Origin: Armatimonadota bacterium
Lineage (GTDB): Bacteria; Armatimonadota; UBA5829; DTLH01
Direction of reading: 5' to 3'
DNA: 64,000 nucleotides
Assembly (NCBI GenBank): GCA_038207085.1
Contig: JBBRAE010000002.1
Coordinates: forward strand, 32,001-96,000
Of the stretch, positions 33,635 through 38,626 are shown in pieces. A program made the translations under genes and the position numbers. The notes under the pieces are model-generated. The model ran no database searches and was not told where the DNA came from. It was given only the letters and a program-made list of their open reading frames with translations. Every line of letters begins with the position of its first letter. Positions within the stretch are counted from its first letter, which is position 1.

Positions 33635-33724
33635 TCGAGCCTCTCGTTGACACCTGGTAAATGTAGTGGTAAACTCGTCTTGTGGGCGCGAGAAAATATT
33701 AGTAAAGTTTTTTCGCAAATGGCC

Positions 33725-33752
33725 TAAAGAAGCTTGTGGCAGTGGCCGATAA
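33725..33752 (+). promoter_or_regulatory. Sigma-28 (FliA/SigD) promoter
   Basis: TAAA-N16-GCCGATAA upstream of flgM. Confidence 0.8.
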
Positions 33753-33774
33753 TCGGGATGTAGACAACATGTAA

Positions 33775-33866
33775 TCCGATAAAGGCAAACTCTTCGAAAG
33801 AAGGGGACGCAAAGCCGCAGGGGCTTCCTCCCGCATATATGCGAGAGATGCTGGCCAGGCCGCCGT
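33775..33866 (+). ncRNA. Cyclic di-GMP-I (GEMM) riboswitch
   Basis: AAAGGCAAA-CTCTTC-GAAA-GAAGGG-GACGCAAAGCC...GGCCGCCG matches the class I consensus. Confidence 0.88.
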
Positions 33867-33933
33867 TCTTCCTGATTCGATGGTTTGCCTTTTTTGCATG
33901 GTGGCCGGGGAGTCGGGGTCAGGAGCAGAGACG

Positions 33934-34236
33934 ATGAAGATTTCTATCAACGAGTGTGGACGCGCTGCGGCTTCGAACGACGATATGATCAAGGAGCGGA
34001 TTCTTCCGGAGAAGATGCCCCGGAAGGGTTCGGCGGCTCCTGCGGATTATTCGCACCTTACGCCACTGGAGCAGGGTATTCGCGTGGCAGAGGAGGCGCT
34101 TGCCTCGGTGCCCGATGTCCGAGAGAGTGTTGTCGAGGACCTGCGCAGGCGCATCAATAGTGGTGAATACAAGATAAGCGGCGAAGAAGTGGCCGATATG
34201 ATGCTTAGGCGAAGGGCGGCCGACCGTATCAGGTAG
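33934..34236 (+). CDS. flgM: Anti-sigma-28 factor FlgM
   Basis: C-terminal PDVRESVVEDLRRRINSGEYKISGEEVADMML; AGGAG RBS; sigma-28 promoter upstream. Confidence 0.85.
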   Translation: MKISINECGRAAASNDDMIKERILPEKMPRKGSAAPADYSHLTPLEQGIRVAEEALASVPDVRESVVEDLRRRINSGEYKISGEEVADMMLRRRAADRIR

Positions 34237-34266
34237 CAGAGTCTGCGTCCTTGAACTGGAGATTTT

Positions 34267-34294
34267 GAGAGGCCGGTAAGTTGGCCTCTCTTTT
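34267..34294 (+). terminator. Intrinsic terminator after flgM
   Basis: GAGAGGCC-ggtaagtt-GGCCTCTC-TTTT. Confidence 0.7.
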
Positions 34295-36590: not shown

Positions 36591-37025
36591 TGGTGGCTTG
36601 GTGTCCTTGTGAATCAAATCCTTCAGAATATTTCCTCTTTTATGCGAACATATCGAGCACAACCCCTGTCTAATACATGTCTCGACAATATGTATACTTA
36701 TAGACGACCAGCGGAGACAACGTCGGACTACAATCAGGTTGGGGAAACCGCGAGCGGATGGATACCTCGAGTTCCGTGTGCGTAACGAGCAAACACACGG
36801 TCGGGGATGCGCTGATGTGACTTTGCAAATAGCCAAGTGGCATTTGCTGTGCACCGTCCGCGTTGGCGGGCCGCTACGGGATGATTGGGAGCCTGCAGGC
36901 TGTTGGGAGCTCGATTAATATAGTCAATCATGCTTTTGGCGACAATGTGACGTGTGGATCACTCGGCAGCAGTTCTCAGAGTGGTTCTGGCAAGGCAGCA
37001 GCGTGCTTCAACAGTAAAAACAACG

Positions 37026-37106
37026 TTAGCCTGCATTATTCACGAGGAGCGTGAATAATGCTTTGCTAGCGAGAGCTTTATTCGCTTCACGAATAAAGCG
37101 GGCTAG
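37026..37106 (+). repeat. Palindromic element, composite A+B copy 3
   Basis: TTAGCCTGCATTATTCACG...CGAATAAAGCGGGCTAG. Confidence 0.95.
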
Positions 37107-38569: not shown

Positions 38570-38585
38570 ACTGAAACTAATCCTC

Positions 38586-38626
38586 GGCCCCGCGAAAACT
38601 TAGCTTCGCGGGGCTGTTTTTGTTTT
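38586..38626 (+). terminator. Intrinsic terminator
   Basis: GCCCCGCGAA...TTCGCGGGGC followed by TGTTTTTGTTTT. Confidence 0.75.

Follow-up and report, generated by a model that had tools for sequence, protein, structure and literature searches.

A conserved c-di-GMP-I riboswitch leader with a terminator-like element precedes a FlgM-family anti-sigma gene in Armatimonadota

As a second messenger, c-di-GMP usually acts on flagellar and developmental sigma factors by way of proteins, e.g., PilZ brakes, FleQ, and RsiG. The locus studied here lies in a stretch of 64,000 nucleotides from an Armatimonadota bacterium (the window, to which all positions refer unless a contig is named), in which a sigma-28-type promoter, a c-di-GMP-I aptamer and a FlgM-family gene are found in series; these sequence features are real and, like all the features of the locus given below, lie on the + strand. 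The questions raised by this arrangement are which sigma factor such an anti-sigma protein would serve and in which direction c-di-GMP would drive its synthesis. A previous reading of the letters alone (the sequence-only reading) had proposed a translational OFF switch and knew of no report of direct riboswitch control of flgM. This lack of precedent was borne out, as our full-text literature search found no riboswitch directly upstream of flgM, and nothing was found in it on riboswitches and c-di-GMP in Armatimonadetes.

The promoter, CCTAAAGA-N15-GCCGATAAT (33723..33753), is located 3' of an A/T-rich stretch and contains, as had been pointed out, TAAA (33725-33728) and, 16 bases further on, GCCGATAA (33745-33752). 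The textbook form of the sigma-28 (FliA) consensus is TAAA-N15-GCCGATAA; both boxes match it perfectly and the spacer, of 16, is one base longer. Among the 84 relatives with sufficient upstream sequence, the strict motif TAAAG-N14-18-CCGATAA was present in 34, of which 30 had the same spacer as the window and 4 a spacer of 15, and the promoters of the others mostly presented one or two base differences at constant spacing. In a position-weight-matrix scan of the genome the window promoter was among the top 2 of 20 matches, none of which was located before flagellin or the flgM of the flagellar cluster. About 75 bases upstream of it there is a sigma-70-like match (33647..33675; TTGACA-17-TAAACT, with TG before the second hexamer; 10/12 matches), although such matches were no commoner than in shuffled sequences. 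In addition, one metatranscriptome contig of 197 bases, with 2 differences, spans 33762-33958, so that a read-through RNA exists. Its 5' end, 9 bases after GCCGATAAT, gives a weak hint of a possible transcription start at 33762, considering that contigs, here those of one metatranscriptome run, cannot prove starts, 3' ends or levels. The run contained 0.14 of the words, and the parts of the window that it did not cover are uninformative.

The aptamer (33774..33867), already recognized as class I in the sequence-only reading, was recovered with the Rfam model RF01051 (58.0 bits against a gathering score of 35, E 9.4e-9) as one of only 2 gathering-level matches within the 64-kb window, and those of its relatives scored 57-90 bits. 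It consists of a P2 hairpin with a GAAA loop (33790-33805) and of P3 (33813-33861), whereas the P1 helix of the bound form has just 2-4 possible pairs by eye. The equivalents of G20, A47, and C92, the ligand-contact bases in Vc2 numbering, are all canonical: G at 33784, the first of GGCAAAC, as had been stated for G20; A at 33811; and C in the CC at 33863-33864 (GCCG). Both GGCAAAC and GACGCAAAG were invariant across 28 orthologous leaders, and the distal P3 stem presented compensatory changes among the loci L013-L018. The tetraloop receptor region reads CUUCC...AGAUG instead of the consensus CUAAg...AuG, opposite a GAAA loop; this atypical form is common to the closest relatives and the usual one is found in more distant ones. 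An altered ligand specificity was considered, given that RF03167 (c-di-GMP-I-GGC) was the top-scoring model for 6 of 29 loci, and was rejected. The contact bases are canonical, the only alignment inspected (L023) has A where RF03167 has G, and all six loci carry GACGCAAAG, so their best score reflects the competition of related models and not a variant. Judged by these positions, the contact bases are of the c-di-GMP type, and c-di-GMP is the predicted ligand.

Downstream of the leader, a Shine-Dalgarno (SD) sequence, GGAG (33922..33925), is found 8 bases 5' of the start codon of a gene (33934..34236) encoding a protein of 100 amino acids that starts with MKIS. This protein matches Pfam PF04316 over residues 42-91, in its C-terminal half (E 1.9e-13; 50.8 bits vs. 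a cut-off of 25). Its 28 orthologues are 42-70% identical, with the same start and end, and its N-terminus (MKIS..ESGKA...KILP) is conserved. The gene has its own intrinsic terminator (34267..34294), as had been noted, with a hairpin of 10 pairs, 6 of them G-C, at 34267-34290, followed by TTTTC. Its neighbors, which include no flagellar gene, are a SIMPL/DUF541 gene on the upstream side and, on the downstream side, parA, parB, and a SPOR gene. The aptamer precedes the FlgM-like gene in all 29 orthologue loci from relatives, in 6 of 10 further loci and in 60 of 71 metagenome loci, and all the named records belong to Armatimonadota. On this comparison of sequences, the layout is common to many uncultured members of the phylum.

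With regard to the protein, its assignment to the FlgM family and its non-flagellar neighborhood stood up, but the plain name flgM has to be qualified, the gene being a second paralogue. The canonical FlgM is encoded in the flagellar cluster, on another contig (C7:42902-43096); flgF, flgG, flgA, flgH, flgI and a rod-binding (FlgJ-like) gene precede it, and flgK and flgL follow it. Its identity to the FlgM-like protein is only 31%. The genome also has two FliA/WhiG-type sigmas above the cut-off, one beside flhA-flhF-flhG and one orphan, of the sigma-28 family (C5:23181-23951), and in the sigma tree the flagellar and orphan clades split at 100/100 support. An orthologue of the orphan clade was found in 49 of 61 genomes. 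A match to the FlgM-like protein was present in 47 of these 49 and in 1 of the 12 others, counts that ignore kinship among the genomes and hence overstate the case; among the FlgM matches, the four most distant (E 1e-4 to 1e-5) may represent the canonical FlgM. Of the 8 genomes that had a FliA-type sigma but gave no FlhA match, 6 also kept strong matches (E <= 1e-10), namely G004, G009, G036, G037, G038, and G048. Apart from G009, which has two sigmas and is not in the tree, the single sigma of each of these genomes without an FlhA match groups in the orphan clade. Conversely, G045, a 100% complete genome with FlhA and only a flagellar-clade sigma, gave no match with the FlgM-like query. Considering these distributions, the FlgM-like protein probably binds the orphan sigma.

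Alternatively, the protein would be a second FlgM of the ordinary kind, with the flagellar FliA as its target; c-di-GMP would then bear on the flagellar checkpoint directly, and the orphan sigma would be irrelevant. This explanation concerns the protein only and is independent of the direction of the switch. The Pfam FlgM match, a promoter resembling the textbook flagellar class 3 promoters and the full flagellar gene set carried by the genome all agree with it. It is opposed by the low identity to the cluster-encoded FlgM, by the strong matches kept in genomes without an FlhA match and by the absence of a match in G045. In addition, flagellin and the cluster flgM are preceded by a different −10-like box, T(C/T)GATAC, in the arrangement TAAA...T(C/T)GATAC, although these are two cases only. 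On balance we regard an action on the flagellar FliA as rather unlikely. The promoter motif of the window was not found before flagellin or the cluster flgM, and the assignment of either sigma to this promoter is a guess. The FlgM/FliA flagellar checkpoint, for which Salmonella and Bacillus are the models, is similar to the present locus in having the FlgM domain in the C-terminal half of the protein and a sigma-28-type promoter before the anti-sigma gene, which provides feedback. Unlike in the checkpoint, the gene studied here is outside any flagellar cluster, is a paralogue that exists beside a canonical, cluster-encoded FlgM, encodes a conserved N-terminus and persists in genomes that gave no FlhA match.

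Between the aptamer and the SD sequence, the leader contains a tail (33865..33889) that is a degenerate complement of the 5' half of the aptamer, i.e., of the GGCAAAC core and both P2 strands, with its own core, GTTTGCC, at 33883-33889. The exact complementarity between GTTTGCCTTT (33883-33892) and AAAGGCAAAC (33781-33790) reported in the sequence-only reading was confirmed and is kept in relatives. As regards the conservation of the two crossing helices described there, the helix between tail and aptamer strand held, its core positions being paired in 63-76 of 76 unique leaders (pair counts from stored sequences), but the helix masking the SD did not (1 of 70 relatives). Changes on the tail side of the core were G-U wobbles at two positions (8) and A-C or A-G mismatches at two others (16). 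As the aptamer strand is invariant, the tail helix cannot show compensatory changes and its evidence is the kept complementarity alone. In the minimum-energy fold of the window, 33781-33791 pair with 33882-33892 and 33794-33798 with 33876-33880.

A run of six T (33890..33895) is located directly 3' of the tail core and forms with the long hairpin a terminator-like element, whose stem base, GGC/GCC followed by U6, is present in the window and conserved. Among 78 unique relatives, the U-run comprised at least 4 U in 76 and at least 5 in 66, with lengths of 4-7. For transcripts that end at the U-run, the long hairpin came out as the fold of minimum energy in 29 of 30 leaders and in 73 of 78, and it was 11.6-23.0 kcal/mol more stable than the aptamer secondary structure. 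Following the order of folding in the window, the aptamer fold is predicted to be favored until the fifth base of GTTTGCC emerges, and the hairpin thereafter, by up to 12 kcal/mol. A tail helix followed by 4-7 U in 76 of 78 relatives looks like a terminator that forms only in the ligand-free state, which is the conventional ON logic. The conserved complement of GGCAAAC and the U-run after it resemble an intrinsic terminator with a long hairpin, whose formation would be incompatible with the ligand-bound fold. We favor an ON switch by such a competing terminator, to which we give about an even chance, over a translational OFF switch, neither being proven.

It must be noted that this putative terminator is unusual, as about 90 bases are enclosed between its closing strands and a hairpin scanner for loops of 3-8 made no terminator call there. 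Comparable gene-end terminators in the window are those at 38585-38616 (with TTTTTG), 30824-30805 (with TTTTG), and 34267-34290 (with TTTTC). The number of terminators found in a scan over 20 kb (19 sites vs. 18.6 in shuffled sequences) is no evidence in itself. In addition, 3-5 of the U can pair with an A-rich stretch 5' of GGCAAAC, so that the U-run may owe part of its conservation to the helix, or to a pause, instead of to termination. A further point against the ON switch is that a plain terminator switch has no need of strand 3 (33900..33918), the predicted downstream partner of the tail in the read-through RNA. The tail/strand-3 duplex was found in 30 of 30 relatives, with z <= -2 in 20 of them (z -1.2 in the window), and compensatory changes in it were seen by eye, e.g., in L039, L040, L073, and L074.

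The translational OFF switch starts from the same elements. According to it, the bound aptamer would free the tail, whose pyrimidine-rich 5' part would mask the SD and lower the synthesis of the anti-sigma. Without ligand, the aptamer strand would hold the tail, the SD would be free and the U-run would be non-terminating. The masking helix proposed between TTCCTGATTCGAT (33869-33881) and 33912-33925 can indeed be drawn, and the 5' part of the tail alone pairs with the SD region at -16.7 kcal/mol (z -1.9). The masking helix needs three to four G-U pairs and a bulge, and was neither conserved nor above chance: the duplex of the whole tail with the SD region had a z of -0.33 against shuffled tails, and in 70 relatives the mean z was +0.45, with z <= -2 in only one. 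In the predicted fold of the ligand-bound leader, 33867-33875 pair with 33910-33918 in a different register that leaves the SD open. No consistent change in SD opening was found either, the predicted cost in the window being 3.9 kcal/mol when the aptamer strand holds the tail and 3.1 when the tail is free. For 78 relatives the mean difference was -0.44 kcal/mol (14 above +2 and 21 below -2), with sub-group means of +0.72 in short leaders, -0.69 in leaders with an internal −10-like box and -2.01 in the MQIS-type group. The OFF switch as first proposed for this locus was thus not upheld.

Some observations do speak for an OFF switch. In relatives with short leaders the tail/strand-3 helix extends into the SD, and in 8 of 26 such leaders, including L014, L015, L016, L027, and L108, opening the SD is predicted to cost over 2 kcal/mol more; in the first three of those named, which are close relatives, SD masking of 4-5 kcal/mol is predicted in the ligand-bound state. 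Strand 3 returns 7-38 of the 12-23 kcal/mol gained by the hairpin, making the states nearly equal, as suits a thermodynamic switch, and the P2 3' strand of this family is purine-rich, as an SD is. A distant lineage that lacks the U-run (L076, L077, L080, L145, L150, and L154, taken from Rfam or motif-search matches, with L151 and L157 presumably two further loci) has a 9-base complement between tail and SD. Its energies point to OFF, but there is also a small conserved hairpin that overlaps the anti-SD and could turn the direction round. Moreover Vc2, upstream of tfoY in Vibrio cholerae and the type member of the class, is described as a translational OFF switch (PMC7371385). Nevertheless, L143 and L144 retain the tail, the U-run and strand 3 despite about 170 bases between strand 3 and the SD. 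In addition, 5-7 U after a stable helix would bring transcription to an end in the very state that is ON in this model, so that the U-run should be counter-selected, and yet it is present in 76 of 78 relatives. We therefore consider the OFF switch improbable. A relay by which strand 3 would mask the SD in the ligand-free state was also examined and set aside (mean z -0.67; z <= -2 in 9 of 70; no excess in the window, z -0.84); the excess of strand-3/SD complementarity is modest and, as far as sequence goes, offers a side argument for an ON switch.

The least probable explanation is neither simple model but a mixed control, in which the U-run would be a pause site allowing time for the ligand decision, or termination without ligand would be combined with partial SD masking with ligand, the output being set by timing or by falling c-di-GMP and the direction possibly varying between lineages. 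Riboswitch leaders carry U-rich pause sites, both the terminator-like element and the SD-adjacent tail/strand-3 helix are conserved, and the predicted translational effects are opposite between the sub-groups mentioned above. However, mixed control requires more assumptions than either simple model, and the very slow ligand release of c-di-GMP-I aptamers speaks against a re-equilibration during the lifetime of the mRNA.

Returning to the ON switch by termination, we infer the following sequence of events. Transcription would be driven by the sigma-28-type promoter through the canonical c-di-GMP-I riboswitch that forms the leader of the FlgM-family anti-sigma gene. Without ligand, the emerging tail (33865-33892) would unzip P2 and pair with the 5' half of the aptamer, including GGCAAAC, giving a single long hairpin that carries P3 at the tip and closes immediately 5' of the six U; RNA polymerase would stop at the U-run and no anti-sigma mRNA would be made. 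With c-di-GMP, the aptamer would hold GGCAAAC, the hairpin could not close and the polymerase would read through. The tail would then pair with strand 3, leaving the SD open, and the FlgM-like protein would be made. The net effect would be that high c-di-GMP gives more anti-sigma. As this protein would probably bind the orphan sigma, and the orphan sigma would probably read the promoter of its own anti-sigma, the result would be a negative feedback loop gated by c-di-GMP.

This mechanism has partial precedents. Among 322 GEMM RNAs, 78 were reported with a competing terminator and a predicted increase of expression by the ligand (Weinberg 2007; PMC1950547). The GEMM-I terminator cases described there resemble the present one in the aptamer class, the canonical contacts, a terminator stem that excludes the aptamer fold and a location in the 5' UTR, before a gene with a link to motility and signaling. 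In those cases the 5' arm of the terminator overlaps with the 3' arm of the last hairpin in the aptamer, whereas here the downstream strand pairs with the 5' half of the aptamer and most of the aptamer becomes the upper portion of the terminator hairpin. The gene families in the main text of that report include no flgM or anti-sigma genes. Vc2 is also a class I c-di-GMP riboswitch over a motility-related regulator, but its bound state is reported to block translation and its target is a transcription factor, not an anti-sigma (PMC7371385). The same text describes further promoters within and downstream of that riboswitch. A box TTGCCT-N17/18-TAnnnT in 39 of 78 relatives suggests likewise, while the window, unlike Vc2, has no such internal promoter-like box. 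As to the outcome, the closest counterpart is RsiG and the sigma WhiG of Streptomyces, in which c-di-GMP also controls a non-flagellar sigma of the sigma-28 family through an anti-sigma (Gallagher 2020; PMC7005675). In that system it is the protein complex that c-di-GMP binds, and RsiG is not related to FlgM, of which that genome has no homologue; here, the signal would act through RNA on the synthesis of a FlgM-family protein.

Tentatively, we propose that in Armatimonadota a second sigma of the sigma-28 family and its own FlgM-like anti-sigma have left flagellar duty, that the riboswitch-gated anti-sigma sits under the feedback promoter of that sigma and that the pair survives in lineages that yielded no flagellar export gene. 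Whether the phylum follows or reverses the usual rule that c-di-GMP stops motility genes depends on the direction of the switch. As an expression platform, the leader is a clean natural case in which the ligand-contacting strand doubles as half of the competing helix. A riboswitch directly ahead of an anti-sigma gene would connect a second messenger to a whole sigma regulon by a short path through RNA alone and, if the proposal is true, would be an RNA-level counterpart of the c-di-GMP-RsiG-WhiG switch of Streptomyces, with a terminator built on the ligand-binding strand of the aptamer. The arrangement is conserved across a poorly known and mostly uncultured phylum, and it gives a handle on the targets of its second sigma-28-type sigma.

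The source genome (3.35 Mb in 83 contigs, with the window at 32001-96000 of contig C2) carries a conserved riboswitch-FlgM locus. Its sigma-28-type promoter had been read from sequence alone as TAAA (33725-33728), 16 bases and GCCGATAA (33745-33752) and is present as described; in their full conserved form the boxes are CCTAAAGA (33723-33730) and GCCGATAAT (33745-33753) on the plus strand. The Rfam check of the class I c-di-GMP aptamer proposed behind it gave a match at 33774-33867 (58.0 bits, gathering score 35, E 9.4e-9), one of two gathering-level matches in the 64 kb window, and within RF01051 the aptamer is unremarkable. The equivalent of G20, the base contacting c-di-GMP, is a G as had been stated, namely the first of the motif GGCAAAC (33784). 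A Shine-Dalgarno (SD) GGAG (33922-33925, plus strand) precedes an ORF of 100 amino acids (33934-34236) scoring 50.8 bits against Pfam FlgM (cut-off 25), which is followed by a hairpin and TTTT at 34267-34294; the stand-alone flgM with its own terminator was thus borne out, and so was its position away from any flagellar cluster, as the 5′ neighbor is a SIMPL/DUF541 gene and the 3′ neighbors are parA, parB and a SPOR-domain gene. The sequence-only reading knew of no precedent, and a full-text literature search found no riboswitch directly 5′ of flgM, nor one before any FlgM-family anti-sigma. In the portions of the main text of PMC1950547 that name gene families, flgB, fliG and motA are included and flgM is absent.

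The records holding relatives of the locus are titled as Armatimonadota MAGs. Full-length relatives of the FlgM-like protein (42-70% identity) occurred in 48 of 61 related genomes, and a c-di-GMP-I-clan match lay directly 5′ of the gene in all 29 orthologue loci fetched. At six of these the variant model RF03167 scored best; an altered ligand was rejected for them, since an A replaces the model's defining G in the one alignment inspected (L023) and GACGCAAAG is common to all six, so they were considered canonical. With one genome taken for each species, a scan yielded 39 loci. Rfam, run on ten of the more distant ones and on the genome's own second flgM, detected the aptamer in six of the ten and none at L070, L071, an Ignavibacteriales record, a Bacillota record or the second flgM. 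Metagenomes contributed 71 loci, and the aptamer motif lies 5′ of the gene in 60; among the 11 without it, seven offer less than 300 bases of upstream sequence. Removal of duplicates left 87 unique leaders, 78 forming the main group and nine being put aside as divergent.

Loci L070 and L071 (genus g21, no FlhA match) have the orthologous FlgM-like gene and no gathering-level riboswitch match. Their leader of about 250 bases lies behind a TTGACT...TAGACT box, retains a tail-like AAGCTTGC stretch and may be a decayed switch. In addition, the divergent lineage put aside above (L076, L077, L080, L145, L150, L151, L154, L157; two records titled Capsulimonadaceae) has the aptamer 5′ of a FlgM-like gene on a different platform, with neither the sigma-28-type promoter nor the U-run. 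Its conserved tail CCUGCGUUAAGGnUGUUCC complements, with its 3′ part, nine bases over the SD, and a small hairpin overlapping that part covaries.

Promoter boxes and spacing were conserved among the relatives. The strict form TAAAG-N14-18-CCGATAA was found in 34 of the 84 leaders with enough upstream sequence, most others being one or two bases away from it, and the bases ahead of the first box are rich in A and T. A position-weight matrix made from 54 of the relatives' promoters identified 20 sites in the whole genome, the window promoter tying for the top score; other sites lie 5′ of a PP2C-like gene, response-regulator-like genes and unknowns, and none of the 20 precedes flagellin or the cluster-encoded flgM. 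Upstream of these two genes (C7:38298-39113 and C7:42902-43096, contig C7) we found TAAA, 14-16 bases and T(C/T)GATAC, a −10-like box unlike GCCGATAAT; this pattern, known from two cases only, could mark a second class of promoter, read by the flagellar-clade sigma. A metatranscriptome contig of 197 bases, with two differences, spans exactly 33762-33958. Its 5′ end agrees with a transcription start nine bases past the −10 box, and its extent fits RNA bridging the U-run described below, although contigs can prove neither starts nor read-through. It stops short of a strong sigma-70-like match at 33647-33675 (TTGACA-17-TAAACT with TG), about 75 bases 5′ of the sigma-28-type promoter.

The complementarity between the segment 3′ of the aptamer (the tail, 33865-33892) and an aptamer strand, the first of two helices in the sequence-only reading, proved real and conserved. 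In every main-group leader the tail core (mostly GTTTGCC, 33883-33889 in the window) is complementary to the invariant GGCAAAC; positions G20−3 to G20+6 were paired in 63-76 of 76 leaders, depending on position. On the tail side of the core, changes at two positions give G-U wobbles, and those at two further positions give A-C or A-G mismatches. The tail is complementary to the first aptamer hairpin as well, on either strand, so that the alternative fold becomes a single long hairpin tipped by the second aptamer hairpin. This was the minimum-energy fold of RNAs that stop at the U-run for 29 of 30 leaders and for 73 of 78 of a larger set, with a predicted stability 11.6-23.0 kcal/mol greater than that of the aptamer secondary structure. 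Folding of the window by length favored the aptamer for as long as fewer than five bases of the core were made, after which the long hairpin prevailed by up to 12 kcal/mol. The U-run directly follows the core (at least four U in 76 of 78 leaders, at least five in 66, six in the window), and gene ends in the window carry ordinary terminators with T4-5 runs. The predicted long hairpin and the U-run have the geometry of an intrinsic terminator. Competing terminators are predicted for 78 of 322 GEMM RNAs in the sections of PMC1950547 on this subject; those overlap the final hairpin on its 3′ side, whereas here the tail pairs with GGCAAAC and the first hairpin.

A different box occurs in 39 of 78 unique leaders (e.g., L019, L028, L031, L093) and is absent from the window: TTGCCT, within the core, followed after 17 or 18 bases by TAnnnT (TATTAT, TATGAT, TAATAT and similar), spanning the tail and the loop after it to about 30 bases past the core. 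It looks like an internal sigma-70 promoter that would yield transcripts without the aptamer, and resembles the promoters within and behind Vc2 in passages of PMC7371385. The source genome has six further c-di-GMP-I matches. Tandem pairs on C50 (329-416 and 802-897) and C27 (37701-37771 and 37862-37956) are close to contig ends, so the genes behind them are unassembled; the copies at C33:19566-19650 and C7:82865-82949 have long leaders with a hairpin and U-run 3′ of the aptamer. Near-identical peptide ends (…SLHYSRGA) in ORF translations at about 36990-37054 of the window and about 230-290 of C50 (minus strand), two unrelated places, suggest a short repeated DNA element.

Since GGCAAAC contains the ligand-contacting G20, the bound aptamer and the long hairpin exclude each other, and c-di-GMP should prevent termination. 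Ligand would hold GGCAAAC in the aptamer, block the long hairpin and turn anti-sigma synthesis on; we give this anti-termination ON switch about an even chance. The sequence-only reading had proposed a translational OFF switch, in which c-di-GMP lowers anti-sigma through masking of the SD by the tail. That helix, the second of the reading, can be drawn, but tail/SD complementarity did not exceed that of shuffled tails (mean z +0.45, one of 70 leaders at z ≤ −2; window −0.33). Moreover, the energy predicted for opening the SD was nearly equal whether the aptamer strand holds the tail or leaves it free (mean difference −0.44 kcal/mol over 78 leaders, above +2 in 14 and below −2 in 21; window 3.9 held and 3.1 free). 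The free tail pairs instead with strand 3 just downstream (33900-33918 in the window) in 30 of 30 leaders (z ≤ −2 in 20; window −1.2), with apparently compensatory changes, judged by eye, in several lineages; L143 and L144 keep tail, U-run and strand 3 although some 170 extra bases lie between strand 3 and the SD. In favor of the OFF switch, the tail/strand-3 helix extends into the SD in several relatives with short leaders, bound-state masking of 4-5 kcal/mol being predicted for L014, L015 and L016. Strand 3 is left unexplained by a terminator-only switch, some of the U-run is able to pair with an A-rich stretch 5′ of GGCAAAC, and PMC7371385 describes Vc2 of Vibrio cholerae as an OFF switch that acts on translation. 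A relay through strand 3 in the ON switch would need strand 3/SD complementarity, which was modestly above chance (mean z −0.67, nine of 70 at z ≤ −2). On these predictions OFF is the weaker of the two candidate directions and unlikely, and mixed or other behavior of the riboswitch is less likely still.

With respect to the sigma factor concerned, the genome encodes a complete set of flagellar genes. The cluster on C7 (flgF, flgG, flgA, flgH, flgI, a rod-binding FlgJ-like gene, flgK, flgL, fliW, flagellin, fliD, fliS) contains the second FlgM match (C7:42902-43096), with which the window protein shares only 31% identity. A group of flhA, flhF, flhG and a PilZ gene on C6 adjoins a FliA-type sigma match, and a second FliA/WhiG-type sigma is solitary on C5. 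The PilZ-domain gene after flhG (C6:112857-113984; L089:6858-7985), with the flagellar-clade sigma match (C6:114288-114959) next downstream, is a second, protein-level c-di-GMP route to the flagellum. A tree of 20 sigmas separated the flhA-adjacent clade from the orphan clade with 100/100 support; the sole sigma falls in the orphan clade in G004, G036, G037, G038 and G048, genomes with no FlhA match, and in the flagellar clade in G045, where FlhA is present. Of the 61 genomes, 49 have an orphan-clade orthologue (52-88% identity; members of the other clade give 38-47%). The FlgM-like protein accompanied them in 47 of the 49, being missed in G033 (68% complete) and G057, and occurred in one of the 12 genomes lacking them (G046, 69% complete); in these counts related genomes are not independent of one another, and the four remotest FlgM-like matches are weak. 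The closest analogue in logic is RsiG-WhiG of Streptomyces, where, according to the pertinent part of PMC7005675, c-di-GMP arms the anti-sigma RsiG against sigma WhiG at protein level in a genome without FlgM. From the distribution of these genes, we consider it somewhat more probable than not that the anti-sigma of the window belongs to the orphan sigma and not to the flagellar checkpoint.
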